Source of the DNA: Acutalibacteraceae bacterium
GTDB taxonomy: Bacteria > Bacillota > Clostridia > Oscillospirales > Acutalibacteraceae
Assembly (NCBI GenBank): GCA_045590755.1
Contig: JAZNRP010000024.1
Span: 127,083 to 151,082 of the forward strand
Direction of reading: 5' to 3'
Length of the DNA: 24,000 nt
Shown here: piece after piece, positions 2,652 to 20,719 of the stretch
Layout of the letters: every line of letters starts with the position of its first letter
How positions within the stretch are numbered: the first letter of the stretch is position 1
Notes under the pieces: model-generated
Database searches by the model: none
What the model was told of the DNA's origin: nothing
What the model saw: the letters and a program-made list of their open reading frames with translations, nothing else
Made by a program: the position numbers and the translations under genes

Positions 2652-5600
2652 ATGGCAACGCAAAAGATTACGCAGAAACAGCAGACCGAAAATGTCAATC
2701 CTGATGCGAGTCTGCTCGTTACTCAAAAGGAGAACGTCGAAGGCGTGGAGATGGAAGCCCTTCGCCGTGCTACCTTAGAAGCGGTTGTAAACGCTTTGCG
2801 TGAAAAAGGTATCAATGACGGATACCAAACAGAACAGGGTATCGTAGATATGTACCCGAACCTCGTTAAAAGCATTGACCCGATTGAAACGGGTATCCGC
2901 ATTTCGTTTTGGGACGAAACCTCGATGGATATTCCGATTGAAAGTGGTGGCTTGGCTTTCGATGAGGTCTCCTACAATCAGGAAACGGGCTATTTACACA
3001 TTATGCTCGAAGGTGAGGATGTTGTGGCTCCGTGCTATATCGGAGGTGGCGGTGGCGGAGGTTCATCGTCCGGTACGGTCGTAAAGGTTACGAATACGAC
3101 AGGTGCCGCATCCTTGACAGTTGCTCACGGAGAGCCTGTAGAAATCAGCTTCACATACTACGACTATGACGGAGACGGAGAGTTTACCAACAGTAGCGGT
3201 ACGCTCGAAATCTCTGTAAACAGCAATGTCGTTATTCAGAAGAATATCGAGCAGGGTGCTCACACCTACGATGTCGGTCCATATTTGACGGCAGGCTCGA
3301 ACAAAATCAAAGTCAAGGTTACTGACGAAGACGATATGTACGGTATGAAGACTTGGACCGTAAATGCGGTTGCTTTGTCTATCAGTTCCGTGTTCGATGA
3401 TACCGTTGTAAACGAAGGTGATGTTACTTTCCGTTACACGCCTATCGGTGCGAACATTGAGAAGACCGTCCATTTCGAGATTGATGGAGAAGAGGCTGCT
3501 ACCGCAATCGTTACCGCCTCGAACCGTCAGCAGACACAAATTATCCCTGCACAGTCTCACGGTGCTCATCCGTTAAAGGTATATATCACCGCCGAGGTTG
3601 ATGGCGTGGCTGTAACGAGTAATATTCTTGAATACGATGTAATTTGGGTTGAAGAAGGAAACGACACGCTTATCTTCGCTTGCAGTTTCAACGATAAGGT
3701 GAAACAATACAGCACCGTGCTCATCCCTTGGATTGCCCACAATCCTACGAGTTTGACCTCTAATGTAGAACAGTATATCGAAGGTGAGTTGCACGCCAAC
3801 CTTACGGTTGGCAGAAACGTGCAATATTGGAGTTATAAGCCGACCACGCCGGGCAACAAAACCCTTATGCTTAAAAGCGGAGATGTTGAAAAAACCATCA
3901 TCGTTCCCGTTGAGGACATTGGTATTACCGTTGAGCCTGTTACGAACGGTCTCGTTATGGACCTCAACCCCGCAGGTCATACCAACAGCGATGACGACAA
4001 GGAGCAGTTCGGTTACACAGACGCAAACGGTGTGAACCATCCGTTGGTATTCTCGCCCAACTTCGATTGGGTGAACGGTGGTTTCCAAACGGACGCAGAC
4101 GGCGGCACATACCTCTGTGTTAAGTGCGGAACCTATGTAGAACTCGACCGCAGTTTGTTCGATACCGATGTTATTGCAAACGGTAAAGAAATCAAGGCGG
4201 TCTTCCGTGCTGCCAAATGCCGTGATTATGATGCTCAGGTAATGAGCTGTATCAGCGGAGGCATCGGCTTGGTGCTTCAGGCACAGAAAGCCACCCTAAA
4301 ATCCTTGCAGACCACCCTCGAAGTTCCTTACTGCGAAGACAGTATGATTGAGATGGATGTCAACATCGAGCCCGGCTCAAAGGACAATGTAATGATGGTA
4401 TGGCTCGAAGGTGTACCGTCAAGAGTTGCCATTTATCCTGATGAGAACGAAGATTTCACTCAGGATAACCCGACTCCGCTTGTCATCGGCTCGAACGACT
4501 GCGATGTGCATATTTACCGCATCAAAGTCTATGATAACGACCTCACACAGTACGAAATCCACGAAAATTGGATTGCGGACGCTCCTAACGGCGAAGAGAT
4601 GGTGAACCGTTACAACCGTAACAACATCTACGACCAAAACGGAGACATTGACGTACAGAAGCTCATCACTCAGAACCCGAATTTGAGAGTGCTCGAAATC
4701 ACGGCACCCAAGATGACTACGGGTAAAGAAGATGAAGTTACCTGTACCGTAAAGCACACCTACGGAGCAGGCGGTAAAGCCCATAAGTTCGTGGGCGAAG
4801 GCGTTATTATGAAAGCTCAGGGTACATCGTCTATGCAGTATGGTACTGCGGCGTACAACCTTGACCTTGAATTCCCGAACGGCTTCGAGTTCGATGACGG
4901 AACCACTCAGGGATATTACAGTATGACTGCCAACAGTATCGGCGTAAACTACTTCAACATTAAGTTGAATGTTGCTTCATCCGAAAACGCTAACAACGTC
5001 ATTATGGCGGCAGAATACAACGATTTCCAACCGTACCTGAACCCCGCAAGAGTGGCGAACCCCAAGGTGAGAGATACCGTAGAGGGTCAGCCTTGTGTTG
5101 TTTTCTTCACGAACAGCAGCGAGGAGACCATTCAGGTAGGTGCTTTGACCGCAGAACCCGGACAGACCATTATGTACGGTTGTGGGGATATGAACAACTC
5201 CAAGAAAAACTTTGCCGTATTCGGTCAGCAGGATAACCCCGTTCAGGCTTGTGTTGAGATAATGAACAACACGAACAACCCTTGTTTGTGGAAGAGCGAC
5301 GACCTCACAGATGAACTGTGGGACGGCGAGGGGTCTTTCGAGTTCAGATACCCGAAGAAGCCTACCGCCGAGCATAAAGCCGCTTTTCAGCGTGTGCTGT
5401 CTTGGGTAGTATCTACCGACAGAACTGCCGCAACGGGTGCTACGCTCGCTCAGGCGGTTGAATATGACGGTGTTACCTACACCACAGACACAGCCGAGTA
5501 TCGTGCGGCTAAGTTCGTTGCAGAGCTCGAAGATTATTTCATCAAGGACTCTGTACTGTATCATTACCTGTTCACCGAAAGACATTCGATGGTTGATAAC

Positions 5601-8600
5601 CGTGCTAAGAACGTGTTCGTATCCACCGATGACGGTATCCATTGGGACTTCACAAAAGACTACGATAACGATACCGCAGACGGAAACGATAACGAAGGCG
5701 GCTTGACCTTGACCTATGGCTTGGAAGACATCGACACCATCGGTACAAAAGATGTTTTCAACGCATCGAGCTCGGTTCTTTGGTGCAACGTAAGAGACCT
5801 GCTCTTCGATGATTTGCAGTCTCTCTATCAGACCCTCGAAACCAAGGGTGCTTGGAATGCTCAGCGTATTCTTGCTCGTTTCAACGCTTATCAGGCGGCA
5901 AGACCTGAAGCCCTAATCATCGAGGATATGTGGAAGAAGTATATCAAGCCCTTTACCGTCTTAGGAAATGACGGCTACCTGAAGATGCTTTACGGCACCA
6001 AGAAAGACCAAAGAAATCAGTTCGAGGTCTATCAGGAGAAGTACATTTCGAGTAAGTATCAGGGCTCTGCGGCTACTTCCGATACGATTACTTTCCGTGC
6101 ATACACGCCTACGAATTGGGCGGGTGTTGTTCCGAGTAAGGAGATGGAGATTACTCCGTATGCGGATATGTATGTAACGGTTAAGTCCGGTTCCGGCATC
6201 GCAAGAGAAAGAGCAAAGAGAGGTCAGAAAGTTACCTTGACCTGTCCTATCGACACCCTTAACGATACCGAAATCTATATCTACAACGCATCGAACATCG
6301 CAGATGTTGGTGATATTGCACCGCTTTATGTAGGTTACTTCAACATCGCTATGGCGACCAAGTTGAGACACTTGAAACTCGGCGACGGTGCGGATGGATA
6401 CAACAACACGAACGCCGAAAGCATTGGTGTTGGCAACAACGAACTGCTTGAAACCTTGGATATTAGGAACTGTCCTATGATAAGAGTATCGCTTGACTTG
6501 ACAGGATGCGATGCTCTTTCTTCTTTGGAGGCAGAGTGCGACAACTACGTACCTACCGATGCGGATGACGTTCCCGGTATCACAGGTGTAGCGTTCGCTC
6601 CCGGTGGCAAGATTGAGACCGCTCACTTGCCGACCGTAACGGCGTTCTCCGCTCGTGAGTTGAAGAGCCTCGAAGACTTGACATTCACAAGCCTCGACAG
6701 ACTCCGTTCGTTGAGAATTGAGAACTGCGGCACCATTGATGCTCTCGAAATCATTCAGAACACAATGCCTGAGAGCGAGGAAGATACAAAAGGCTTGACG
6801 AGAGCCCGTATCCTCGGCATCAGTTGGATACTGAACGACAGTAACGCTGATGTTCTCGACTACTTGGTAGAGTTGAAGGGCTTGAACGAAAGCGGTGCAA
6901 ACTCCGACCAATCGGTTGTTACCGGATACGCTTATGTTCCTACTATGAAAGCATCCGAGTTGAACGCTTATAGAGCGGCTTGGGGCTTCGACCTCGAACT
7001 CGAATGGCAGAGTTACGTAGAGCAGTATCTCGTAACGTTCGTCAACTACGATGGAAGCACGTTGCACACTCAGTATGTTGACCGTGGTATGGCGGCAGTT
7101 GACCCCGTTGAAGCGGGTATAATCGGCGAGCCTACAAGAGAAAGTTCCGTATCTACCGTTTACACCTACAACGGATGGGACAGCAGTTTGGCAAATATCA
7201 CGTCTGCGAAGACTGTTACGGCAACCTATGAAGAGTCGCTGAGACAGTACACAGTAAGATGGATTTCTCAGCTTGGCGTTATCCTCGAAACACAGACCGT
7301 AGGATACGGTCAATCGGCAACCTACACGGGCGATATTCCCACTCGAACCGATGAGGAGAGCTCGAAGATTTACCATCTGTTCAAGGGATGGAAACAGAGC
7401 ACCGGATACATCACGGGCGACCTCGATGTATGGGCTGATTGGGAGGATGGTTATGAACCCTCCGAAATCGTGGATACGCAGACACTCAATGCTGCACAGT
7501 TGTACGGATTTACCAAGGCAGGAAACGCTAAGAACTTCCTGTCTGTAAAGGACCGTGTGTTGATTACACTTGGTTTTGACCCCGACTACGACAATGTCGA
7601 TTATGTCGATTTGATTGAGGAACCTACCGTCCTTGACGGTGCTACCTGTATCGAGACCGAATTGCAACCGTTTAAGGACGGCATTGCAGACGGATGGACT
7701 CTTGTTGTGGACTGCGAATTCGATGAGACCACAGCAGACCAAACGATGGTATGTTGTATGCAGGAAAGCGGATATATGGGCTTCAAGGTCAAATATACGG
7801 GTGGTCCCTCGGTACAATGGTCCACCAACAGTTACAACAGCGGTGCTACGACCTACCGTGAGATTATGGTTATCCGTCATCTCCCCGGAAGTCGAAATGT
7901 TATCGTTTATTCCTCGAAAGCCTATGAGACGGCTATCGGTTACAAGGAATTGACGAAGACCATTGACACCCTCACAAATGCCAAGTTGTATATCGGTGCT
8001 ACCGTTACGGATGGCGGCGATATAGGCAACTACGCAACGGGTACACTCTACTCCCTGAGATTTTGGAAGGGCGACCTCGGGGATGCCGACTGCCGTAAGA
8101 TTGTTTCGTGGCCCCGAGAGACCTACACCTTTGAAGTGGGCGGTTTCGAGAACTATATACTCTCTGCCAACTCTGTTGAGAAGACGAGCGTGGATTTCAT
8201 CTGTGCTTCACTTCTCGAAAGAACCAAGCAGATGAACACAACCAATAGCAACGCAGGCGGCTTTGCAAATATGCCGATTTTCTCTTGGTTGCAGGGCAGA
8301 CTCTACGATGCTTTCCCGACTGTTTGGCGTAACTTTATGAAGCAGAGTGTTATCAACTACAACTGCTACGTAAACGGTACAGACTCAGACATTCAGGAGT
8401 GCGATGCTTATGTATGGCTCCCGTCCTATATCGAAATGCAGGGCGGTACGGCAGAACCGTGGATTTACGAGGGTAATTGGGTTACGTTCTTTACGAACAA
8501 TACCACTCGTTTGAAGTGGCAAGGTCATTGCCTCGCAAGAGACGTTGACGGCGGCTATCAGACATTCAGCCAAAGCACAGACCCCGCTACCGACACAACG

Positions 8601-8822
8601 AAGAATGTCAGAGATGGAGACCTGTGGATACACACAGGCGAGTCTTCTCGTGGTTATCTCCGTGTCAACGGCAAGTGGCTTGCCTCGTATAACTATTGGC
8701 TTCGTGGAGCCTCGGTCACTTACTCGACGGCCTTCTGCATTGTGTACTACTACGGCGGCGTGAACTACGGCGGCTACAACGCCAACTACAGCAGTGGCGT
8801 GTGCCCCCGCTTCTCAATCTAA
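2652..8822 (+). CDS. Giant (2056 aa) multidomain tail fibre / receptor-binding protein; DGR target (variable protein) with the VR at its extreme C-terminus
   Basis: An uninterrupted 6.2-kb ORF with RBS aaggggg upstream. It has a Gly/Ser linker (3042-3071) and several adhesin-type domain signatures, detailed in the findings. The last 47 codons contain the VR, which matches the downstream TR. Confidence 0.85.
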   Translation: MATQKITQKQQTENVNPDASLLVTQKENVEGVEMEALRRATLEAVVNALREKGINDGYQTEQGIVDMYPNLVKSIDPIETGIRISFWDETSMDIPIESGGLAFDEVSYNQETGYLHIMLEGEDVVAPCYIGGGGGGGSSSGTVVKVTNTTGAASLTVAHGEPVEISFTYYDYDGDGEFTNSSGTLEISVNSNVVIQKNIEQGAHTYDVGPYLTAGSNKIKVKVTDEDDMYGMKTWTVNAVALSISSVFDDTVVNEGDVTFRYTPIGANIEKTVHFEIDGEEAATAIVTASNRQQTQIIPAQSHGAHPLKVYITAEVDGVAVTSNILEYDVIWVEEGNDTLIFACSFNDKVKQYSTVLIPWIAHNPTSLTSNVEQYIEGELHANLTVGRNVQYWSYKPTTPGNKTLMLKSGDVEKTIIVPVEDIGITVEPVTNGLVMDLNPAGHTNSDDDKEQFGYTDANGVNHPLVFSPNFDWVNGGFQTDADGGTYLCVKCGTYVELDRSLFDTDVIANGKEIKAVFRAAKCRDYDAQVMSCISGGIGLVLQAQKATLKSLQTTLEVPYCEDSMIEMDVNIEPGSKDNVMMVWLEGVPSRVAIYPDENEDFTQDNPTPLVIGSNDCDVHIYRIKVYDNDLTQYEIHENWIADAPNGEEMVNRYNRNNIYDQNGDIDVQKLITQNPNLRVLEITAPKMTTGKEDEVTCTVKHTYGAGGKAHKFVGEGVIMKAQGTSSMQYGTAAYNLDLEFPNGFEFDDGTTQGYYSMTANSIGVNYFNIKLNVASSENANNVIMAAEYNDFQPYLNPARVANPKVRDTVEGQPCVVFFTNSSEETIQVGALTAEPGQTIMYGCGDMNNSKKNFAVFGQQDNPVQACVEIMNNTNNPCLWKSDDLTDELWDGEGSFEFRYPKKPTAEHKAAFQRVLSWVVSTDRTAATGATLAQAVEYDGVTYTTDTAEYRAAKFVAELEDYFIKDSVLYHYLFTERHSMVDNRAKNVFVSTDDGIHWDFTKDYDNDTADGNDNEGGLTLTYGLEDIDTIGTKDVFNASSSVLWCNVRDLLFDDLQSLYQTLETKGAWNAQRILARFNAYQAARPEALIIEDMWKKYIKPFTVLGNDGYLKMLYGTKKDQRNQFEVYQEKYISSKYQGSAATSDTITFRAYTPTNWAGVVPSKEMEITPYADMYVTVKSGSGIARERAKRGQKVTLTCPIDTLNDTEIYIYNASNIADVGDIAPLYVGYFNIAMATKLRHLKLGDGADGYNNTNAESIGVGNNELLETLDIRNCPMIRVSLDLTGCDALSSLEAECDNYVPTDADDVPGITGVAFAPGGKIETAHLPTVTAFSARELKSLEDLTFTSLDRLRSLRIENCGTIDALEIIQNTMPESEEDTKGLTRARILGISWILNDSNADVLDYLVELKGLNESGANSDQSVVTGYAYVPTMKASELNAYRAAWGFDLELEWQSYVEQYLVTFVNYDGSTLHTQYVDRGMAAVDPVEAGIIGEPTRESSVSTVYTYNGWDSSLANITSAKTVTATYEESLRQYTVRWISQLGVILETQTVGYGQSATYTGDIPTRTDEESSKIYHLFKGWKQSTGYITGDLDVWADWEDGYEPSEIVDTQTLNAAQLYGFTKAGNAKNFLSVKDRVLITLGFDPDYDNVDYVDLIEEPTVLDGATCIETELQPFKDGIADGWTLVVDCEFDETTADQTMVCCMQESGYMGFKVKYTGGPSVQWSTNSYNSGATTYREIMVIRHLPGSRNVIVYSSKAYETAIGYKELTKTIDTLTNAKLYIGATVTDGGDIGNYATGTLYSLRFWKGDLGDADCRKIVSWPRETYTFEVGGFENYILSANSVEKTSVDFICASLLERTKQMNTTNSNAGGFANMPIFSWLQGRLYDAFPTVWRNFMKQSVINYNCYVNGTDSDIQECDAYVWLPSYIEMQGGTAEPWIYEGNWVTFFTNNTTRLKWQGHCLARDVDGGYQTFSQSTDPATDTTKNVRDGDLWIHTGESSRGYLRVNGKWLASYNYWLRGASVTYSTAFCIVYYYGGVNYGGYNANYSSGVCPRFSI
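8676..8815 (+). repeat. DGR variable repeat (VR)
   Basis: It aligns without gaps to 9726-9865 at an offset of exactly 1050 nt, with 122 of 140 positions identical. Of the 18 mismatches, 17 fall where the TR has A (VR has T x9, G x6, C x2). The one non-A mismatch (8811) is at the 3' end. Confidence 0.93.
8796..8815 (+). promoter_or_regulatory. Putative IMH (initiation of mutagenic homing) at the 3' end of VR
   Basis: The GC-rich 3' end of VR, ggcgtgtgcccccgcttctc, compares with ggcgtgtgcccccgactctc in TR. It contains the only non-adenine VR/TR difference (8811 T vs 9861 C), as expected for an IMH versus IMH* pair. The boundaries are inferred. Confidence 0.45.
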
Positions 8823-8846
8823 AAGGCGTAAGCCGTACTCTTATAA

Positions 8847-8873
8847 ATCTGCCCTGCGTGAGTCAGGGCAGAT
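8847..8873 (+). promoter_or_regulatory. Perfect 10-bp stem / 7-nt loop hairpin just downstream of VR (candidate DGR target-recognition hairpin/cruciform; might also act as a weak terminator)
   Basis: The sequence is atctgccctg-cgtgagt-cagggcagat. It starts 32 nt after the VR end and 25 nt after the stop codon. No T-run follows it. Confidence 0.55.
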
Positions 8874-8900
8874 AAATTCCTATGGAAAGGATTTTCGCAA

Positions 8901-9695
8901 ATGTCAGTACATCGTAGCGACCGTAAGATAGCCTTTATGGAGTTTGTAAGGCAGATGTCGAGATTACACCGCCATACTCACGAACGGTTGAGGTCGCTCC
9001 CGGCAAGGTACAAACGGTACATCGTACCGAAAATCAGTCGTCCACTCAACACGGCATACAGTTCGGTCATCCTCGCAAATGAACAGAACGCAAGAACGGC
9101 TCTCGGTGCTCGGCAACGGGCGATGCTTTTCGATAGGGCTATAAAATGCCTGAAAGAAATGCAAGAGCCGTTGTTTGCTGTATGGAATTTGCTCGATGTT
9201 ACCGAGTCGGGCTGTGATTATTGGATTGAAATGATTAACTATGAATTCGCCTTGCTTTATGGCGTTGCGAAATTGGAAGGAAAACCGCCGATGTTTTTTA
9301 CGATACCTCGGAGAAAGATTGAAAAACTGAACTTCTTGAAAAAGATGTGTGAACTGCATAAGTACACCTATCAGAAACTCGGTCACGCTCCTGAATATAC
9401 CCGTGAGGGCATCGGCGAACCTATCTCGAAGTTCATCAACAACGCTCTGTTTAATGTGTTCGATGCGAATAATATCGTGCCGACCACTCAGGCAGAGGCG
9501 GATAAAAGGGCGAAACGGTTTCAAGCGGCGGTTGACTCGCTCAACGCCTTGCAGACTCCGCTCCTTGCTCTTTGGAACATTATGGATTACAGCGAAAACA
9601 TAATGGATGAATGGTCGGGTCTTCTTGATGAAGAGCTTCGGCTCCTCGAAGGCTTGAAGAAAGCCGACAGGGAGCGATACAAAAATCTTCGGTGA
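8901..9695 (+). CDS. avd: Avd-like accessory variability determinant (four-helix-bundle type), tandemly duplicated (264 aa)
   Basis: It sits between VR and TR, exactly where avd sits in canonical DGRs. The protein is basic and predicted to be all-helical. Its two halves align with each other (RKIAFMEFVRQMSRLHRHTHERL vs RKIEKLNFLKKMCELHKYTYQKL; LKEMQEPLFAVWNLLDV vs LNALQTPLLALWNIMDY). RBS ggaaagga lies 9 nt upstream. Confidence 0.7.
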   Translation: MSVHRSDRKIAFMEFVRQMSRLHRHTHERLRSLPARYKRYIVPKISRPLNTAYSSVILANEQNARTALGARQRAMLFDRAIKCLKEMQEPLFAVWNLLDVTESGCDYWIEMINYEFALLYGVAKLEGKPPMFFTIPRRKIEKLNFLKKMCELHKYTYQKLGHAPEYTREGIGEPISKFINNALFNVFDANNIVPTTQAEADKRAKRFQAAVDSLNALQTPLLALWNIMDYSENIMDEWSGLLDEELRLLEGLKKADRERYKNLR

Positions 9696-9725
9696 AAGGA
9701 GAATATGGGCGGTATTCTATCATCT

Positions 9726-9865
9726 TGGCTTGCCTCGAATAACTATTGGCTTCGTGGAGCCTCGGTCACTAACTCGACGAACTTCTGCAATGTGAACAAC
9801 AACGGCAACGTGAACAACAACGGCAACAACGCCAACAACAGCAATGGCGTGTGCCCCCGACTCTC
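9726..9865 (+). repeat. DGR template repeat (TR)
   Basis: This is the intergenic copy of VR. By my count it holds 40 adenines, concentrated in 17 AAC/AAT codons when read in the VR frame. All but one of its differences from VR are at its adenines. Confidence 0.93.
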
Positions 9866-10140
9866 GTAATTAAAGTAACCAAGAATGAGGGTGAAACAAT
9901 CGAATTATGAGAAGGAGAATACAGCCCTCCGGGAGAGACACCCGGTAAATAAATGACCGTTCTGCTTCAAGGACGGTGCACCACGTCCGGTGCCGCAGTT
10001 ATAGACGGGAGGACGCTTCTTGCATAGCGGTAAAATGTCCGCCTTTTGCCGTTTTATTCCCGTGGCTATATACCCGATATAATCTGACGGAAACTCCGAA
10101 AACGGTTGATTGCCGCAATGGAGAACTATAACAAATCGGG
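9866..10140 (+). ncRNA. TR-to-RT spacer, probably part of the DGR template/priming RNA
   Basis: This 275-nt stretch has no credible ORF and lies between TR and the RT start. It contains short GC-rich stem-loops that exclude one another (ggacg/cgtcc 9971-9988; gcacc/ggtgc 9978-9993) and a cggtaaaa/ttttgccg hairpin (10028-10051). The function is assumed by analogy with the Bordetella phage BPP-1 spacer RNA. Confidence 0.35.
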
Positions 10141-11382
10141 ATGTGCGTAGGCGAACTATATCTTATGAGCAATCAAGAAAGAATTCAGGCTCGAATTGCC
10201 CGTGATAAAGCAAGGAAAGCCGCTAAAAGACAGGCTGCCGTCGAGAAACACGGCACCTATGAAAATGTTATAACCCTGCAAAACCTGCACCGTTCTCTGC
10301 GGAAACGCCGAAAGAACGTGGAATGGAAAGGCAGCGTTCAATCGTACCTCGCTCACGCTATCGTAAAGATAAAACGGTCGAAGGACGAACTGCTTCGTGG
10401 AGAAGTCAATATCAACAGAGCGATAAAGCGAATGACTATCTATGAGAGAGGCAAACGCCGAGATATTCACGCCATTATGATTGACAGCCGTGTCATTCAA
10501 GGTGTGCTTTGTGATGCTTCAATCACTCCGCTTACTCAGCCCTCGCTGATATACGATAACCCTGCGAGCACCAAGCATAAGGGCATATCTCACGCCCGAA
10601 ACCGCATATTGAAGATGCTCCGTGAGCAGATAAAGCGAAGCGGACCGAATTCGTATGCTTTACTTACCGACTATACCGGATTTTTTGACAGTATTCCCCA
10701 CGCAGTTTGCAAGGAGAAGTTGAAAAAGGCAGGTATGGACGATAGACTGTGCGACCTAACGATGTCGTATATCAAGATGTATCAGGCTCAGGACTATTCG
10801 TTTATCGAAGACCCCGTAGAGCGTGAGCAAATGTATATCAAACTCGCCAACGATGAGGACTCGGGAGCCACCCTCGGAAGTCAGATTTCGCAGGATATGG
10901 CTTTGGTTGTCCCGAACGATGTGGACCACGCTGTCAAAGATAGGTGCGGTATGAAAGGCTACATTCGGTATATGGATGATAGTTATACCGGGCACGGCGA
11001 CAAGCAGGTTCTTCAGGCGGTTTATGATGTCATCAAACAGGAGAGCAACGCCATCGGCTTGAAACTGAACGAAAAGAAGACCCATATCGTGAAGTTTACG
11101 AGAGGCTTTATGTTCCTGAAGGTGCATTACATCGTTACCGACACAGGCAAAATCATCAAGAAAATGGCAAAGGCAGGAATTGTCCGTATGAGGCGTAAGC
11201 TGAAGAAGTTTGTTCGTCTCGTACAGCAAGGTAAGATGCGGATGGACGATGTTTTCAACTCGTTCAACTCTTGGAGGGGCAACGCCAAGAAGTATTCGCA
11301 ATCGTACAGAGCAAGAAAGGCTATGCTTGTTCTGTATAACAAGTTGTTCAAACGATACAGAACGGGAGGTATAGCAGCGTGA
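10141..11382 (+). CDS. DGR-type reverse transcriptase
   Basis: RT motifs are present: LLTDYTGFFDSIPH (motif A), LGSQISQ (the DGR-typical SQ motif B), YMDD (motif C) and GFMFLK (motif E). The N-terminal NLHRSLRKRRKNVEWKGSVQSY and IYERGKRRDIHAIMIDSRVIQGVL resemble DGR RT finger motifs. The start is uncertain: ATG 10141 or in-frame ATG 10165, and neither has a clear SD. Confidence 0.9.
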   Translation: MCVGELYLMSNQERIQARIARDKARKAAKRQAAVEKHGTYENVITLQNLHRSLRKRRKNVEWKGSVQSYLAHAIVKIKRSKDELLRGEVNINRAIKRMTIYERGKRRDIHAIMIDSRVIQGVLCDASITPLTQPSLIYDNPASTKHKGISHARNRILKMLREQIKRSGPNSYALLTDYTGFFDSIPHAVCKEKLKKAGMDDRLCDLTMSYIKMYQAQDYSFIEDPVEREQMYIKLANDEDSGATLGSQISQDMALVVPNDVDHAVKDRCGMKGYIRYMDDSYTGHGDKQVLQAVYDVIKQESNAIGLKLNEKKTHIVKFTRGFMFLKVHYIVTDTGKIIKKMAKAGIVRMRRKLKKFVRLVQQGKMRMDDVFNSFNSWRGNAKKYSQSYRARKAMLVLYNKLFKRYRTGGIAA

Positions 11383-11867
11383 ATTACTATAAGATTATCG
11401 AAAACGGTACGGTTATTGATGCGAACTGCATTTTCCTGAAATGGCAGAAGAAGAACAATATCCTTATCGGTTGCGATGCTTCGGAGGCGAACTTCATTCA
11501 GTCGTCCGACCAACAGAAAGTTTGGAAGGTCGATTGGCTCATTCCCGCCGATGCAAAAGCAGGTGAATACCCGTCTATCGAGGCGGTCGAAATCACCAAG
11601 GAAGAATATGACGAACTCAGGGCTCAGCTCGATGCAGGACTTAACCCCGAAGTCCCCGAAGAAGAGCCCGAAATCCCCTCGGATACTGATGAGCCGGGAG
11701 ATGAAGTTCCATCCGAGCCTGTGATGAGTGTCGAAGAAATGAGACGCAAAATCACGATGTTGGAGACTGCTCTTGAAGAGCAGAAAATCATCAACGGTGA
11801 GCAGATGGAGAGGAATGATTTCCTCGAAGGCTGTTTGCTTGAAATGTCGGAAATCGTCTATGGTTAG
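11379..11867 (+). CDS. Hypothetical protein (acidic, coiled-coil C-terminus; possibly an XkdW-like tail-fibre-associated protein)
   Basis: Its GTG start overlaps the RT stop (GTGA), with gggagg 10 nt upstream. It is 162 aa with an acidic Pro/Glu-rich linker and the C-terminal sequence LEGCLLEMSEIVYG. Confidence 0.6.
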   Translation: MNYYKIIENGTVIDANCIFLKWQKKNNILIGCDASEANFIQSSDQQKVWKVDWLIPADAKAGEYPSIEAVEITKEEYDELRAQLDAGLNPEVPEEEPEIPSDTDEPGDEVPSEPVMSVEEMRRKITMLETALEEQKIINGEQMERNDFLEGCLLEMSEIVYG

Positions 11868-13064: not shown

Positions 13065-14912
13065 ATGACTAATTTGGAATTAGCCAACAAACTGATTGAC
13101 ATTGCCAAAAATGTTAAGACCCTTTATGTTATGGGAGGTATCGGCTATCCGCTTAATGCTAAGGGAAAGCAGAGAGCGTATAAGAACTCTTGGAATACCG
13201 ACCCGGACAGAGTGAAATTCATCGAAGCAGCATCGGACGACACTTTCGCTTTCGACTGTGTCTGCCTCATCAAGAGCGTGCTTTGGGGGTTCGTTGCAGA
13301 CCCCTCAAAGACCTATGGTGGTGCTGTGTATAAGGCAAACGGTGTCCCGGACATCGGTGCTGACACGATGATTACCAAATGCTCCGACATCTCTACCGAT
13401 TTCAGCAAGATTGAAATTGGTGAAGCTGTTTGGATGAAAGGTCATATCGGCGTATATGTAGGAAATGGTCTCGCCGTCGAGTGTACGCCTATTTGGGGGA
13501 ATGATGTGCAACTGACCGCCTGCAACTGCTCAAAGAGTGGTTACAACCGCCGTAATTGGACGAAGCACGGCAAGTTACCCTACATTACCTACGAAAATCA
13601 GGCAGTAGCAGAACCTACGCCTGACAAAAATACCCCTACCCTCAAAGAGATGTCCGCTGCGGATGCCGAAAAGGCGTTCTACAAGTATTTGACCGAAACT
13701 TTGGGGCTGAATTGTGCCGCCGCTTGTGGCGTTCTCGCCAACATCGCCGCCGAGTCAGCGTTCAGGTCCACCAACTTGCAGAACACCTACGAGAAGAAGC
13801 TCGGCTACACCGACACCGAATACACCCTTGCCGTAGATAACGGTTCTTACGATAATTTCGTAAAGGATGCCGCAGGCTATGGCTTCGCACAATGGACCTA
13901 TTGGAGCCGCAAGCAGAAGTTGCTTGAATTTGCCAAGAGCAAAGGCAAGTCTATCGGCGATGCCGAGATGCAGATGCAGTTCTTCGGTCAGGAAATCAAG
14001 GGCTATTCGGGCGTTTGGAAGACCTTGCAGAGCGTTCCTAACACCGCAGAGGGTGCCTACGAAGCAGGTCATAAGGTCTGCTACGATTATGAGGCTCCCG
14101 CCGCTAAGCAGACATCCGCTGTTACTCGTGGCAATAGTGCTAAGACCTACTTTGCGAAGTACGGCGGTTCTGCCGCTTCTTCCGGCAATGCAGGTTCTAC
14201 CGAAAAGCCTGTCGAGAGCGTTGATTATGCTATCGGCGACAAGGTGTATGTCAACGGTAAGATTTACGCCTACGGCAACGGCAAGGGCAACTCCTTGACA
14301 AAGAATAACGCAACGATGTATGTTTGCGATATTGTCGATAAGAAGACCTATCCTCACTACATCGGCGTTTCTGCCATCAAGGGCGGCACAAGACAGGGTT
14401 GGGCTAAGCCTGATATTCTGTCTAAGAGCAGTTCTGTTGCTCCCGCTAAGCCGACTACGACCACGAAGCCCACTACGACCGCAAAACCCGCCGAGACTGC
14501 TCCTGCTACGGGCTATGTCAACTACACGGTTGTCGGTGGTGATAACCTCACCAAAATTGCGGCTAAATTCAAGACCACCATCGCAAAGATTGTGGCGGCG
14601 AACAATATCAAGGATGCCAACAAGATTTGGGCGGGACAGGTGCTCAAAATCCCCTCTGCCTCTGCATCCGCATCGTCCAACGCAACGCCGACTGTCAATA
14701 AGACCTTTGCAAAAGGCGACGCAGTTATCGTTAATGGTACGATTACCGGATACGGCAACGGAGGTGGCGGTAGCATTGTAAAGAAAGGTGTAAGGATGTT
14801 CGTTTGCGACATCGTGGACTCCTCGACCTACAAGAACTACATCGGCGTTTCCGCTTATAAAGGCGGAGCCCGTCAGGGTTGGGCGAACCCGTCCATCTTG
14901 AAGAAAGCGTAA
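13065..14912 (+). CDS. Multidomain endolysin: NlpC/P60-like cysteine peptidase + phage-lysozyme2-type glycosidase + repeat / LysM / repeat cell-wall-binding region
   Basis: RBS gaaggagg. The peptidase motifs are the Cys motif FAFDCVCLIKS and the His motif KGHIGVYVGNG. The second domain (GVLANIAAESAF, GYGFAQWTYWSRKQKLLEFAK) is typical of phage tail lysozyme-type domains. A LysM lies at about 14515-14655 (YTVVGGDNLTKIAAKF, GQVLKIP). It is flanked by two copies of a roughly 70-aa repeat (14218-14427 and 14698-14909). Confidence 0.85.
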   Translation: MTNLELANKLIDIAKNVKTLYVMGGIGYPLNAKGKQRAYKNSWNTDPDRVKFIEAASDDTFAFDCVCLIKSVLWGFVADPSKTYGGAVYKANGVPDIGADTMITKCSDISTDFSKIEIGEAVWMKGHIGVYVGNGLAVECTPIWGNDVQLTACNCSKSGYNRRNWTKHGKLPYITYENQAVAEPTPDKNTPTLKEMSAADAEKAFYKYLTETLGLNCAAACGVLANIAAESAFRSTNLQNTYEKKLGYTDTEYTLAVDNGSYDNFVKDAAGYGFAQWTYWSRKQKLLEFAKSKGKSIGDAEMQMQFFGQEIKGYSGVWKTLQSVPNTAEGAYEAGHKVCYDYEAPAAKQTSAVTRGNSAKTYFAKYGGSAASSGNAGSTEKPVESVDYAIGDKVYVNGKIYAYGNGKGNSLTKNNATMYVCDIVDKKTYPHYIGVSAIKGGTRQGWAKPDILSKSSSVAPAKPTTTTKPTTTAKPAETAPATGYVNYTVVGGDNLTKIAAKFKTTIAKIVAANNIKDANKIWAGQVLKIPSASASASSNATPTVNKTFAKGDAVIVNGTITGYGNGGGGSIVKKGVRMFVCDIVDSSTYKNYIGVSAYKGGARQGWANPSILKKA

Positions 14913-14922
14913 GGTGAGTAGT

Positions 14923-15378
14923 ATGAGAAAGATTTCCGCATTATTGCTCGCCCTTGTTATGCTCTTGACAGGGTGTTCCGCTCCCGGTCCTGCTGTAAGT
15001 AACGCAGAGACATCTGCTCCCGTTTCGTCCGAGGAACATACGGAAGAGACCATTTACAGCGAGTGTGCCGTCATCGACATTGCAGTTGGCGAAGACGGTT
15101 ACTACTGCCTGATGGGACAGATTTCGGTTGACCTGTTTGATGGTGAGCCTCTTGCGGTAGTTATTGATGACCCCGCTTTGCTCGCTTTTCAGGTGTCCTC
15201 GGAAATGGACGGCGGCGTATATGTTTTTAAGTTGAGCGAGGGCGATGCCGTTATCGAGTGCCTTACAGCAGTTATGGAAGAGCTGACCGCTACCGGACAG
15301 ACAGAACTTGCGGCAGAAATCCAAGAAGTGCTCGATATATTCTCTTGCTCAGGTCCGTTTATTCAGGCAAGCACTTGA
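14923..15378 (+). CDS. Acidic lipoprotein (possible superinfection-exclusion or lysis accessory protein)
   Basis: The signal peptide and lipobox are MRKISALLLALVMLLTGC. I prefer ATG 14923 over the listed GTG 14914. The mature part is acidic. Confidence 0.65.
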   Translation: MRKISALLLALVMLLTGCSAPGPAVSNAETSAPVSSEEHTEETIYSECAVIDIAVGEDGYYCLMGQISVDLFDGEPLAVVIDDPALLAFQVSSEMDGGVYVFKLSEGDAVIECLTAVMEELTATGQTELAAEIQEVLDIFSCSGPFIQAST

Positions 15379-15392
15379 CAGGAGGGGTAGAA

Positions 15393-15605
15393 ATGTTAGA
15401 GGCGATTGCAAATGTCATCCTACTCATCGCTATACTCGTTATTGTTCCTGTTTGGATTGTATCGCTCGTGAACTATAACCCCAACGAAGACCCTTGCCGA
15501 CCCGAAGATTGCAAAACTTGCCCCTTTCCTCTGTGCGAGGGCAGGGGCATTATGTTGCAAAAACAAATTGAACAGAAAGAGGTAGAAGACAATGACCTTT
15601 ATTGA
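15393..15605 (+). CDS. Small membrane protein with a Cys-rich tail (70 aa)
   Basis: ATG 15393 has caggagggg upstream. One TM helix (VILLIAILVIVPVWIVSLV) is followed by CRPEDCKTCPFPLCEG. Confidence 0.55.
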   Translation: MLEAIANVILLIAILVIVPVWIVSLVNYNPNEDPCRPEDCKTCPFPLCEGRGIMLQKQIEQKEVEDNDLY

Positions 15606-16095
15606 AATTGTTGAAATCGTAATCATCGCTCTTTGCATTATCACCTACGGCTTTATGCTGTACTTCAAGGTGAGAGGCAATGTTGTCGGAGCAGTCAGCG
15701 AACTGATTGCTCTTGCCGAGAAGACAGGTCTTCCCGGCGAACAGAAGATGGCACAGGTAGTCGAAGCCTTGTATGCCAAGGTTCCCGCTTTCTTGAAGAA
15801 AATCCTTAGTAAAGAACGCTTGCAGGACATTGCTCAATGGATTTTCGATTGGATGAGGAAATATGCAGACACCTATGTCGAAATGGCGAAAGATGATACA
15901 ACCGATGCTGAATTAAAAGAGACCGCCGTTGAAGTCGGGACCGAGGCGATTGCCGAGCTCGTTGCACAGTTGATGAACGCAGGGCTTCAGGAGCTTCACG
16001 ACATTGCGGTTGAAAAGAATGTAATCACCGAGGGCTTAAAGACCAAGAAAGATTACGTTCAGGCCATCATCAAAGCCGTTCTTAATAAGGCGTAA
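15592..16095 (+). CDS. Membrane protein, LL-H-holin-like N-terminal region with an HeH/SAP-like C-terminal motif
   Basis: The start overlaps the previous gene. An N-terminal TM helix is followed by AVSELIALAEKTGLPGEQKMAQVVEAL, which resembles LL-H family holins. The C-terminal LQELHDIAVEKNVITEGLKTKKDYVQAIIKAV resembles a helix-extension-helix motif. Confidence 0.45.
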   Translation: MTFIEIVEIVIIALCIITYGFMLYFKVRGNVVGAVSELIALAEKTGLPGEQKMAQVVEALYAKVPAFLKKILSKERLQDIAQWIFDWMRKYADTYVEMAKDDTTDAELKETAVEVGTEAIAELVAQLMNAGLQELHDIAVEKNVITEGLKTKKDYVQAIIKAVLNKA

Positions 16096-16846: not shown

Positions 16847-17251
16847 ATGAGTCATACAGACCATTGGTGCAACCACTACGCTCATCCGATATTCCCTGAA
16901 AGAATTGGATGGGACGGAAAACCCATTGAGAGAACGCCGGAAGATTACCCGTATTCATACGACGAGTTCTTCGTTTTCCAATCGGACGACTTTGACAGGA
17001 ACAAAGCCTCGGCGGTTTATTCAGACCGTATGATGAGTTGGGATTTCGATAAGTTCGCAAAGGCTATGAGCGAGGTTTGGAAGACAGGCGGACAGCAGTT
17101 TTTCGATAAGAAACCCGAAGATGTGAACCGCTTCTTGAACCTGTATTTCGGAAAAGAAGTTAAGTTGACCGCCATCCTGCGAGGATGCAATGTCAGCAAC
17201 GGTTATCCGTATTGGATTTTCGCTTACGAGGAGGTAAAAGAAAATGCCTGA
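16847..17251 (+). CDS. Hypothetical protein (134 aa)
   Basis: ATG 16847 has aaaggag 8 nt upstream. The listed TTG 16820 start is less likely. Confidence 0.6.
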   Translation: MSHTDHWCNHYAHPIFPERIGWDGKPIERTPEDYPYSYDEFFVFQSDDFDRNKASAVYSDRMMSWDFDKFAKAMSEVWKTGGQQFFDKKPEDVNRFLNLYFGKEVKLTAILRGCNVSNGYPYWIFAYEEVKENA

Positions 17252-20080: not shown

Positions 20081-20324
20081 TTATTACGCAACCTACAAGT
20101 GTCCGCTTTGCGGCACCATCATCCGATGCGGCAATCCTGCCGATGTTCCGCAGGATAAGTTACCGGAAATACTTGGTATGGTGGTTCGGAACCAAATGAT
20201 GCAAGGCAATCCCGCTCTTCATCAGGCACCGATGTATATACCGCATAAGTGTAAGGACGGAAACGCAGGTCTTGCGGTGTTTGCCGGGTTCACCCAAGAA
20301 CGCAAGAAGCAATCAGGGCGGTAA
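20073..20324 (+). CDS. Small zinc-binding protein (83 aa)
   Basis: ATG 20073 has gaggagg 6 nt upstream. It contains CPLCGTIIRC and HKC. Confidence 0.6.
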   Translation: MGSYYATYKCPLCGTIIRCGNPADVPQDKLPEILGMVVRNQMMQGNPALHQAPMYIPHKCKDGNAGLAVFAGFTQERKKQSGR

Positions 20325-20420
20325 AATGTCCGTAGGAGCCAATACTACGGATGCCGCCATACATTTACCCATTTGAACTCGCTCTATTTAATTTAGGCGA
20401 CCATTTAGGAGGTGGTTACG

Positions 20421-20660
20421 ATGAAAAAGTTCAGACAGAACGTTGCTTTGGCTCTCGCCTACATAGCAGCGGCACCGTTCTTGTTGGTTGGTTTTATAAT
20501 TTGGTTGTTCACGCCGAGTCAAGATGACTGTGTAGGATGTCCGAAATGGGCTGAAAAGGACGGGGTTCCGCCCGATGCGATAGACTACGACAGCATTTGT
20601 GAGAAATGCAAGTCCAATCCCAAGAACAGAAAGAAAAAGAAGAATAGAAAATGTCCGTAG
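20421..20660 (+). CDS. Membrane-anchored zinc-ribbon protein with a polybasic tail (79 aa)
   Basis: ATG 20421 has aggaggtgg upstream. It has a TM helix (ALALAYIAAAPFLLVGFIIWLF), Cys pairs CVGC and CEKC, and the tail NRKKKKNRKCP. Confidence 0.6.
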   Translation: MKKFRQNVALALAYIAAAPFLLVGFIIWLFTPSQDDCVGCPKWAEKDGVPPDAIDYDSICEKCKSNPKNRKKKKNRKCP

Positions 20661-20719
20661 GAGCCATTCCCTTGCTTTCGGCAATACCCTACATCATTCG
20701 GGACATTTCCAACGGTTTT

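Follow-up and report, generated by a model that had tools for sequence, protein, structure and literature searches.

The window (the whole 24,000-nucleotide stretch of DNA analysed here) carries on its + strand, in the order target gene with variable repeat (VR), accessory protein Avd, template repeat (TR), spacer and reverse transcriptase (RT), the parts of a diversity-generating retroelement (DGR). The first-pass annotation of this DNA had called the element complete, in canonical order and on one strand, and every feature that it listed was found where it had been placed. All ORFs of the cassette are intact, including the catalytic YMDD and LGSQISQ motifs of the RT. An acidic ORF 3′ of the RT was considered as a further DGR component and rejected, being a phage gene.

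The target gene (2652–8822), identified as an ORF with PHROG and Pfam matches, encodes an acidic (pI 4.5) tail-associated protein of 2,056 aa, the body of which belongs to phrog_14959/24896 and the C-terminus of which is a DUF6273 domain (aa 1860–2056, 8229–8819; Pfam PF19789, E 1.4e-7 to 1.8e-9) that bears the VR. The gene is preceded by baseplate-wedge, baseplate and tail-fibre genes, orthologues of 2,033–2,189 aa occupy the equivalent position in relatives, and DUF6273 was detected in 12 of 13 relatives. The earlier label of ‘tail fibre’ derives from synteny (baseplate J, gpI-like and fibre genes upstream) and not from any direct annotation, whilst the size of the protein, previously singled out as a peculiarity, has precedent since DGR targets reach 2,697 aa (Wu et al., 2018, PMC5758913) and 2,056 aa is within the published range. 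The DUF6273 domain is presumed to be a C-type-lectin-like receptor-binding domain, DUF6273 DGR targets having been modelled as C-lec folds (Baykov et al., 2023, PMC10743442). This fold was not confirmed by the AF2 model of the VR domain, which reached a pLDDT of only 38, and a profile search of PDB sequences with the domain gave no match.

Variation between the template and variable repeats

The VR (8676–8815; the last 140 nt of ORF 2652–8822, bar 7) and the TR (9726–9865) form an ungapped direct repeat of 140 nt with 87% identity, confirming on pairwise alignment the repeat reported from the first reading. Within the VR, mutable sites (8688–8794) are followed by a GC-rich block (8796–8809) and a fixed IMH-like tail (8810–8815). 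The TR is non-coding, with no conserved ORF or start codon across it among the relatives compared, and contains 40 adenines, mostly in AAC codon-equivalents. The TR base is A at 17 of the 18 mismatches, 17 of the 40 TR adenines thus being altered in the VR, and the adenine mismatches within the mutable region are all at codon position 1 or 2. The sole non-A mismatch (C9861 versus T8811) adjoins A9860 in the 3′-terminal stretch past the GC block, within which the VR and TR copies of every relative show a fixed difference. A VR-specific C and TR-specific A past the GC block are fixed at every related locus with both copies read, and since this boundary marker is synonymous there is no protein-level selection on it.

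When eight loci were pooled, 111 of 249 TR adenines were changed compared with 3 of 715 other bases (Fisher p ~1e-70), which excludes chance, and across 25 related loci 362 of 367 TR/VR mismatches fell at adenines (111/114 plus 251/253). Rather than being spread over all four TR bases, mismatches are therefore biased to adenines both here and in related loci; the variation is adenine-specific and TR-to-VR-directional. This confinement to TR adenines supports the original proposal that the phage rewrites its tip by adenine-specific mutagenic retrohoming.

A phage from another sample (L033), 97.3% identical to the window over 11.9 kb, allowed the two repeats to be compared between samples. There was one difference among the 140 positions of the TR and one among the 299 of the spacer, whereas the VR differed at 18 of 140, all 18 being TR-adenine positions, and the cassette was 98.6–99.7% conserved versus 95.6% for the flanks. 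In a second pair of relatives (L020 and L012) the TRs are 100% identical, and TR-A positions account for 21 of the 22 differences between the VRs. With a near-identical TR and a VR differing only at TR-adenine sites, the element is, as judged from this between-sample comparison, recently active, and the turnover of 18 adenine sites within a well-conserved cassette makes this activity younger than the ~3% divergence of the phages. A fixed VR with drift in the TR, which the first-pass annotation had named as evidence against its reading, is not what L033 displays.

Hairpins, accessory protein, structured RNA and reverse transcriptase

Just past the stop codon of the target gene is a small stem-loop, GGC-GTAA-GCC (8825–8834), which is found in most relatives and missing from L014, L028 and L029. 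A GC-rich hairpin or cruciform (8847–8873), 31 nt 3′ of the VR, consists of a 10-bp stem with a bulged T, a C-G pair and a GTGA tetraloop, and its DNA fold has an energy of −13.7 kcal/mol (z −4.8). Across 18 loci, pairing holds in 96% of cells and compensatory changes are seen at 5 of the 10 pairs, and 0 of 500 shuffles attain as high a score. Its geometry agrees with published DGR target hairpins (Guo et al., 2011), although the loop consensus of the latter is GRNA and that of the present lineage GTRA plus a bulge, making it, by analogy, a candidate DGR target-recognition structure.

The Avd ORF (8901–9695) encodes 264 aa and matches PHROG 3206 ‘Avd protein of DGR’ (E 3.6e-10, in the C-terminal half). 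Its double length, already remarked upon, reflects an internal duplication of the Avd fold: the N-terminal half (aa 1–130, 8901–9290, pI 9.8) and the canonical Avd-like C-terminal half (aa 131–264, 9291–9695, pI 8.6) are both basic and 35% identical to each other (E 3e-20), and the AF2 model (pLDDT 90) has two four-helix bundles. The model matches Bordetella Avd (4dwl, TM 0.84) as well as 2gsc and phage ‘Avd-like’ models, and each of its halves superposes on the ~110-aa bundles of the Avd/23S-rRNA-intervening-sequence four-helix-bundle family (4DWL, 2GSC, 2RLD; TM 0.61–0.89, normalised to target). Solved and BFVD-modelled members of this family are all single-domain, and none of the solved or BFVD models covers both bundles of the tandem protein (best query-normalised TM 0.43). 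The tandem Avd is a conserved fusion of two homologous Avd domains, the family (262–274 aa) comprising 37 clusters at 90% identity and ~100 representatives at 50% identity, and the fusion is conserved in ~100 metagenomic clusters, always with a ~2,000-aa DUF6273-ended target. The element, which the first-pass annotation did not recognise as a described one, is not isolated but part of a lineage that is widespread among phages of gut Clostridia; a literature search found no published description of a two-domain Avd fusion.

Between avd and the TR, a segment (9696–9725; AAAGGAGA ... GGGYGGYRTTCT) is conserved in relatives with no conserved start codon, and may be the counterpart of the RNA segment upstream of the TR that is required for cis-priming in phage BPP-1 (10.1101/2023.10.23.563531). 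The previously noted 275-nt spacer between TR and RT (9866–10140) was confirmed and can be refined to a structured RNA of a curated family, RT-2 (Rfam RF03077; Weinberg et al., 2017), which abuts the TR 3′ end (9861–10172) and scores 54.5 bits on the full-length model, for which the gathering score is 40. Thirteen relatives have RT-2 at the same place, as does Roseburia phage Shimadzu (145 bits); the RT gene comes immediately after RT-2 in 15 of 15 elements, and RT-2 begins 0–5 nt from the TR end in the window and in the eight relatives with a mapped TR end. Weinberg et al. (2017) linked only RT-10 to a DGR and left RT-2 unassigned, speculating on retrons or other DGRs; here RT-2 is tied to DGRs, which is new relative to its discoverers. 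A candidate TR:spacer duplex for priming within RT-2 lacked clean support, with a G-G clash with the window's own TR and no covariation.

The RT gene (10141–11382; 413 aa from the first start) matches Pfam RVT_1 and PHROG 1423 (E 1.5e-58) and encodes both motifs on which its first identification as a DGR RT relied, LGSQISQ (aa 245–251, 10873–10893) and YMDD (aa 277–280, 10969–10980). The true start is probably the second ATG (10165; 405 aa), since all relatives align from there and the L033 gene was called there. The best solved relative is bRT (8ub7, E 1e-10), with a group II maturase behind (5e-5), and LGSQISQ aligns to IGSLTSQ of bRT (I181–Q187) and YMDD to D215/D216. The nearest phage RTs belong to annotated DGRs, such as that of Shimadzu (Avd and RT).

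Alternative readings of the locus and its parts

It is improbable that the TR/VR differences record past activity of a cassette that is now dead, because the ORFs and catalytic motifs are intact and the cassette is conserved above its flanks relative to L033 while 18 VR adenine sites turned over. Collapse is seen in one relative (L018), which has lost Avd and whose giant gene terminates in a TR-like sequence that is unmutated and joined to RT-2, another (L002) has a VR with only 3–4 changes, and activity at the window locus is read from a between-sample comparison rather than directly. Far more remote is a repeat that is an unrelated duplication beside an RT of group II intron, retron or Abi/DRT defence origin; placement of the RT in a group II intron, retron or Abi clade was something the first-pass annotation had itself named as a refutation. 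In NCBIfam the RT scores highest on the model for group II RT/maturases (61.7 bits) and lower on Drt3a, Drt2 and retron St85, but none of these comes anywhere near its curated cut-off (61.7 versus 300, 31.4 versus 200 and 23.9 versus 235). An Rfam scan of the window returned RT-2 alone, with no group II intron or retron RNA, bRT is the closest solved structure, and the adenine-only, TR-to-VR-directional variation is unexplained by any non-DGR reading.

The hairpin at 8847–8873 is intergenic and directly follows a very long gene, where such hairpins are commonly terminators, and the likeness of DGR hairpins to terminators was remarked by Guo et al. (2011). We nevertheless regard it as unlikely that the hairpin instead acts on transcription or on the RNA, as a terminator, attenuator or processing site between the tail gene and avd, since neither strand has a T-run after it and a terminator scan gave no call. 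Its position 31 nt past the VR, its GC-rich 10-bp stem, its tetraloop of conserved sequence and the freedom of the stem to vary in sequence while its pairing is kept are all features of the DGR hairpin that has been defined by experiment. Slightly more credible, though still doubtful, is a tandem Avd that functions through its C-terminal half only, the N-terminal half being a diverged passenger or adaptor with another role and the RNP in effect canonical. The Avd PHROG match is significant for the C-terminal half only (1.3e-8 versus 0.22), single-domain proteins of ~134 aa match that half only, and the N-terminal half evolves faster (mean pairwise family identity 45% versus 61%). The N-terminal half, however, is basic and retains the Avd fold at high model confidence, and it is kept at constant length in all ~100 diverged representatives and all 25+ loci examined, which argues for selection on both domains; a second fused bundle would moreover sterically alter a pentameric ring regardless.

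Proposed mechanism and relation to known DGRs

The locus is very probably a complete, functional and recently active DGR in a temperate phage or prophage of gut Clostridia. Its mechanism is canonical in all parts tested, and the variant part is the accessory protein Avd, with its conserved two-domain fusion. By analogy with Bordetella phage BPP-1, from which cis-priming from the spacer, assembly of Avd, RT and RNA, a role of the hairpin in homing and receptor binding by the varied tip are carried over, one transcript would cover the avd end, the TR and the RT-2 spacer RNA, and this RNA would assemble with the RT (10165–11382) and Avd. The RT would reverse-copy the TR to cDNA, misincorporating opposite template adenines, and the cDNA would replace the VR at the 3′ end of the tail protein gene, with the GC-rich 3′ block, and probably also the conserved hairpin, directing the homing. 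VR rewriting covers the last ~40 codons of the gene, and the outcome would be up to ~23 re-randomised codon positions (AAC-type) in the DUF6273 domain, the presumed receptor-binding tip, with the TR staying intact. As the modelled Avd is a single chain with two bundles, the RT/RNA scaffold may be one of paired domains and not of five identical protomers.

The gene order is that of the prototype BPP-1 DGR (mtd–avd–TR–brt), which also has a VR at the 3′ end of a tail receptor-binding gene, adenine-specific TR-to-VR variation, a GC-rich 3′ boundary with a TR/VR marker difference, a hairpin 3′ of the VR, a structured spacer RNA between TR and RT, the RT motifs I/LGxxxSQ and YMDD, and an Avd that is a basic four-helix bundle. 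BPP-1 differs in its spacer RNA (RT-10 rather than RT-2), target (381 aa with an Mtd fold, against 2,056 aa with a DUF6273 end), RT (328 against 405 aa), hairpin loop (GRNA, against GTRA plus bulge in the window lineage) and Avd (128 aa and homopentameric, against a 264-aa tandem of two bundles). Among annotated phages the closest relative is the DGR of Roseburia phage Shimadzu (LR596903; RT 35% identical), which shares the RT-2 RNA between TR and RT, the layout baseplate J–gpI–fibre/target–Avd–TR–RT–lysis, TR/VR mismatches at A (17/18) and the same A/C marker past the GC block, but its Avd is single (136 aa), its target is 431 aa long, and its RT is without the ~24-aa insertion that is found upstream of LGSQISQ in the tandem-Avd lineage. 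The gut phages nd4 and nd12 (Baykov et al., 2023, PMC10743442), whose RTs are 27–30% identical to that of the window, have a VR-bearing C-terminal domain of the same Pfam family in single-domain targets of 234–294 aa, whereas in the window DUF6273 caps a multidomain protein.

Adenine-specific variation between the repeats

The plus strand of the window carries ORFs of 2,056 aa (2652-8822) and 264 aa (8901-9695), a 445-nt gap and an ORF of 413 aa (10141-11382), and 8676-8815 and 9726-9865 form an ungapped direct repeat of 140 nt, the first copy of which ends 7 nt short of the stop codon of the 2,056-aa ORF. The first-pass annotation had read these as the variable repeat (VR), Avd-like ORF, template repeat (TR) and reverse transcriptase (RT) ORF of a diversity-generating retroelement (DGR), and all were recovered at those coordinates. 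The mismatch spectrum in related loci, the recent directional turnover of the VR, the identity of the RT and the accessory features together identify the element as a complete, recently active DGR with the canonical mechanism. Its parts and its activity signature are directly observed, and the biochemical steps would follow, by analogy, those of the prototype DGR of Bordetella phage BPP-1.

Seventeen of the 18 TR/VR mismatches in the window fall at TR adenines, 17 of the 40 TR adenines being altered, and the sole exception (C9861/T8811) adjoins A9860/C8810 at the extreme 3' end. Related loci were gathered via homologues of the 264-aa protein, and in eight of these, pooled, 111 of 114 mismatches were at TR adenines, corresponding to 111 changed bases among 249 TR adenines versus 3 among 715 other positions (Fisher p about 1e-70). 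These 111 mismatches were confined to codon positions 1 (72) and 2 (39), and a further 17 loci placed 251 of 253 mismatches at TR adenines. Turnover was assessed using L033, a 12.5-kb contig from an independent metagenome with 97.3% identity to the window across 11.9 kb. The two differ at 1 of 140 TR positions, 1 of 299 spacer positions and 6 of 1,218 RT positions, whilst the VR differs at 18 of 140 positions, all 18 at TR-adenine sites. In a second pair of related loci, L020 and L012, the TRs are identical and 21 of 22 VR differences lie at TR-A sites. The population-type expectation of the first-pass annotation, a constant TR beside a VR varying at TR-A sites, was thus borne out by both pairs, and the element provides a clear natural case of recent VR turnover in a 2,000-aa tail protein.

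The cassette at 8816-11382 (Avd-TR-spacer-RT) shares 98.6-99.7% identity with its L033 counterpart, versus 95.6% for the flanking tail and lysis genes, a gap that could be explained by tighter constraint on the cassette or by a recent exchange of it. No remote second VR was found in the window when both strands were scanned. A diverged direct repeat of 134 nt (14271-14404 and 14751-14884, ~66% identity) has mismatches across all four bases and lies within the endolysin gene at 13065-14912; a similar repeat is present in the related locus L001, and it is presumably a duplicated cell-wall-binding module with no relation to the DGR. An exact 19-nt direct repeat (20323-20341 and 20648-20666, 325 nt apart) lies among small ORFs of unknown function.

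Repeat boundary, reverse transcriptase and spacer RNA

In every relative with both copies readable, including Roseburia phage Shimadzu (LR596903), the nearest annotated phage relative, the base directly after the GC-only block GGCGTSTGCCCSCG is C in the VR and A in the TR. Since this change is synonymous (CGC/CGA), it behaves as a marker of the IMH/IMH* type rather than as a product of mutagenesis; the VR ends in a GC-rich boundary of that type. A hairpin at 8847-8873, 31 nt past the VR, has a GC-rich 10-bp stem, a T bulge, one C-G pair and GTGA as its loop, and as a DNA fold has an energy z of -4.8 versus shuffles. Over 18 distinct loci its pairing is retained in 96% of cells, with compensatory changes in 5 of the 10 pairs and one stem fully flipped; none of 500 shuffles reached the observed values and slid registers paired at 34-47%. 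No T-run follows the hairpin and a terminator scan was negative. Homing in BPP-1 requires a hairpin or cruciform of such kind, and other phage DGRs carry GC-rich stems of 7-10 bp with 4-nt loops located 4-34 bp from the VR (Guo et al., 2011). The hairpin shortly downstream of the VR described here shares this geometry, with a GTRA loop versus the GRNA of those elements. A small conserved stem-loop (GGC-GTAA-GCC, 8825-8834) was also observed directly 3' of the target stop codon in most, though not all, relatives.

The RT matches Pfam RVT_1 and a PHROG RT family (E 1.5e-58), and its best PDB match is 8ub7_A (E 1e-10), with a group II maturase behind at 5e-5. We take 8ub7_A to be the Bordetella RT (bRT) because its I181, Q187, D215 and D216 agree with the numbering used in the cryo-EM preprint on bRT-Avd-RNA (10.1101/2023.10.23.563531). 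The LGSQISQ of the window aligns to bRT IGSLTSQ (I181-Q187) and its YMDD to the catalytic aspartates D215/D216, so that on sequence the enzyme appears to be of the DGR type, with [LIV]GxxxSQ in motif 4, YMDD and bRT as closest solved relative; the nearest phage RTs likewise sit inside DGR cassettes. Other RT families fit poorly. A group II intron origin is rejected, since the RT scored 61.7 bits against the group II RT/maturase model TIGR04416 (cut-off 300) and no group II intron RNA was matched by Rfam within the window. A defence RT of the retron, DRT or Abi kind is similarly rejected, with NCBIfam scores of 23.9 for retron St85 (cut-off 235), 31.4 for Drt3a (200) and 27.9 for Drt2 (390), and no Rfam match to a retron RNA within the window. 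Alignment of RT N-termini and the gene call in L033 point to a start at 10165, rather than at the first ATG, with a predicted product of 405 aa. RTs of the tandem-Avd lineage also carry an insertion of ~24 aa (YQAQDYSFIEDPVEREQMYIKLANDEDS) just upstream of LGSQISQ (window 10780-10870, RT aa ~215-240), which is absent from the RTs of Shimadzu and of the related locus L015.

The spacer between TR and RT matches the Rfam family RT-2 (RF03077) over its full length (9861-10172, 54.5 bits, gathering score 40), beginning inside the final 5 nt of the TR and overlapping the first ATG of the RT ORF. In 13 relatives and in the annotated Shimadzu DGR (145 bits) RT-2 immediately precedes the RT gene. Its start lies 0-5 nt from where the TR copy ends, both in the window and in the eight relatives with a mapped TR end, and in Shimadzu it begins 5 nt past the repeat copy. 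The element thus has a structured spacer RNA immediately past the TR and ahead of the RT. The discoverers of these motifs tied RT-10 alone to a DGR, as the BPP-1 spacer, and speculated on the other RT motifs (PMC5737381). On these data RT-2 serves as the DGR spacer in a lineage of Clostridia phages, which links an orphan curated RNA family to such a role.

RT-2 is most conserved in a formally unpaired stretch, GGACGCUUCUUGCA (10011-10024), which shows partial complementarity to the GC-rich TR 3' end (9846-9859). This candidate template-primer duplex resembles the TR:Sp of BPP-1 and forms in several relatives, but is imperfect in the window owing to a G-G clash and showed no covariation, Shimadzu included, and is kept as a lead. 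The 30 nt between avd and TR (9696-9725, AAGGAGA…GGGCGGTATTCT) are conserved among relatives, and the AAGGAGA motif recurs inside the RT-2 spacer (~9908). This segment may, by analogy, correspond to the upstream RNA that BPP-1 requires for cis-priming. A translated ORF running across the TR, suggested by an AGGAG-ATG ahead of the TR in the window, was rejected because the start is not conserved.

The fused tandem Avd

The distinctive, conserved and apparently undescribed feature of this element is its Avd, a fused tandem of two domains. The C-terminal half (aa 141-264) matches the PHROG annotated 'Avd protein of DGR', and the two halves are 35% identical to each other (E 3e-20). AF2 modelling on an alignment of 17 sequences gave two four-helix bundles with high confidence (pLDDT 90, pTM 0.86), and the double length reported by the first-pass annotation is therefore real. 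In Foldseek searches one bundle matched Xcc0516 (2gsc, TM 0.85-0.89) and Bordetella Avd (4dwl, TM 0.84, probability 0.99), as well as phage 'Avd-like' BFVD models, and no structure spanning both bundles was present among the solved or BFVD structures searched. The protein is basic (pI 9.5 overall, 9.8 and 8.6 for the N and C halves), so that the small basic four-helix bundle encoded beside the TR in DGRs occurs here as two bundles in one chain.

A word-indexed search recovered 37 tandem-Avd clusters at 90% identity, nearly all of 263-266 aa, and an exhaustive profile search about 100 representatives of 260-290 aa spanning the whole profile; single-domain proteins of ~134 aa matched its C-half only. 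The N-half evolves faster, with a mean pairwise identity of 45% versus 61% for the C-half. In every locus examined the tandem lies between a giant target ending in DUF6273 and the TR/RT-2/RT unit, and the lineage is abundant in phages of gut Clostridia. These tandems go undetected by Pfam and NCBIfam, and such cassettes may therefore be scored as Avd-less.

The closest annotated phage DGR, that of Shimadzu, differs in having a single 136-aa Avd and a 431-aa target, compared with the tandem Avd and 2,056-aa target of the window. A survey of DGRs describes Avds 'of similar length' and one DGR with two avd genes (Wu et al., 2018; PMC5758913), and no tandem or fused Avd came up in the open-access literature searched, an absence which is not proof. 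The BPP-1 Avd is a homopentamer in which two protomers touch bRT and all five touch the 5' stem-loop of the spacer (10.1101/2023.10.23.563531), and a two-bundle chain cannot form a ring of five identical bundles in that style. The ~24-aa insertion in the RT may have co-evolved with the tandem Avd. We tentatively propose, as a reading somewhat short of even likelihood, that the fused Avd marks out a DGR lineage in which the RT-Avd-RNA particle departs from the Bordetella pentamer in stoichiometry or symmetry, perhaps as a pseudo-even ring or two stacked rings of heterologous N and C bundles, and that it co-evolved with the RT insertion and RT-2.

To our knowledge, DGRs are the only natural systems of targeted protein hypermutation in prokaryotes, and nearly everything we know of their mechanism comes from a single element, BPP-1, where RT and spacer RNA engage the Avd homopentamer asymmetrically. 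They are also being engineered for directed evolution. An obligate two-domain Avd fusion tests the generality of the pentamer model; should its particle differ, the lineage would be a natural second model for the essential features of the DGR ribonucleoprotein and, if the tandem-lineage reading is true, the orphan family RT-2 would gain a function.

Target protein, genomic setting and the acidic ORF

The body of the target protein falls in phrog_14959/24896 (unknown function) and its last ~200 aa are DUF6273. Homologues of baseplate-wedge, baseplate (gp48/gpI-like) and tail-fibre genes lie upstream and a lysis cassette downstream, from which it is reasonable to infer that the target is a tail-associated receptor-binding protein. 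The giant size claimed at first pass was confirmed at 2,056 aa but is not without precedent, as published DGR targets reach 2,697 aa (Wu et al., 2018; PMC5758913). Targets in relatives are about 2,030-2,190 aa where the gene is fully read, with one of 1,179 aa. DUF6273 targets of the DGRs of gut phages nd4 and nd12 have been modelled as C-type lectins with a VR hairpin (PMC10743442). An AF2 model of the C-terminus made here from 5 sequences was unusable (pLDDT 38) and a profile search of PDB sequences gave only noise. Alignment of 13 C-termini revealed a conserved scaffold (WLRGAS...GVCPRFSI) with variation concentrated at AAC-templated codons. The CotH-like, LRR, B-repeat and LamG domains suggested by eye were dropped, Pfam support being limited to a sub-threshold LRR_4, and self-BLAST detected no internal repeats in the protein. 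An antisense ORF of 639 codons (5961-7880, minus strand) lies wholly inside the target gene and is most likely a by-product of sense-strand composition.

An acidic ORF (11379-11867, plus strand, 162 aa, pI 4.1), the GTG start of which overlaps the RT stop codon, follows the RT in all relatives, and distant homologues (33-49% identity) likewise follow RTs. In size and charge it resembles, by comparison with the published description only, CH1, a small acidic protein tied specifically to avd-less DGR cassettes (Wu et al., 2018). A role as a DGR accessory or CH1 homologue is nevertheless rejected: the present cassette has avd, and in 29 of 36 viral loci with a homologue of the acidic ORF neither RT nor Avd occurs within 4 kb. 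In the one of these 29 that was examined closely (L044) the homologue directly follows a phrog_14959 protein, and in many phages free of RT and Avd homologues of the N-terminal domain of the acidic ORF come after phrog_14959 tail proteins. The acidic ORF is thus probably a partner or chaperone of the tail protein rather than a DGR component, with the Avd-TR-RT cassette inserted between the tail-protein gene and the acidic ORF.

MAGs of Ruminococcus, Eubacteriales and other Clostridia from animal guts contain relatives, some of them on contigs of 126-324 kb, and others lie on viral contigs of 30-145 kb, one relative having an integrase; these settings place the element in a lineage of temperate phages or prophages that inhabits gut Clostridia. 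A 217-kb NCBI contig is on record with an identical Avd, and no near-identical DNA was matched in the phage collection. In the related locus L018 (6360-6800) the giant gene closes with a TR-like sequence (…NVNNNGNVNNNNNASNSN…) that is rich in AAC, unmutated and directly abuts RT-2, and there is no Avd gene and no second repeat. We ruled out an Avd-independent relative in favour of a collapsed element, apparently the result of homologous recombination between VR and TR with loss of Avd; this would be a natural way for DGRs to fail. Two further RNAs were detected among the relatives. One is a type II hammerhead ribozyme (Rfam 39.3 bits, gathering score 37), intergenic and downstream of the lysis genes at 17178-17242 (plus strand) of L005. 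The other is a tmRNA gene (163 bits) at 15340-15691 (minus strand) of L014, a Clostridia MAG contig, about 4 kb downstream of its DGR; this gene may be carried by a phage or indicate where a prophage integrated.
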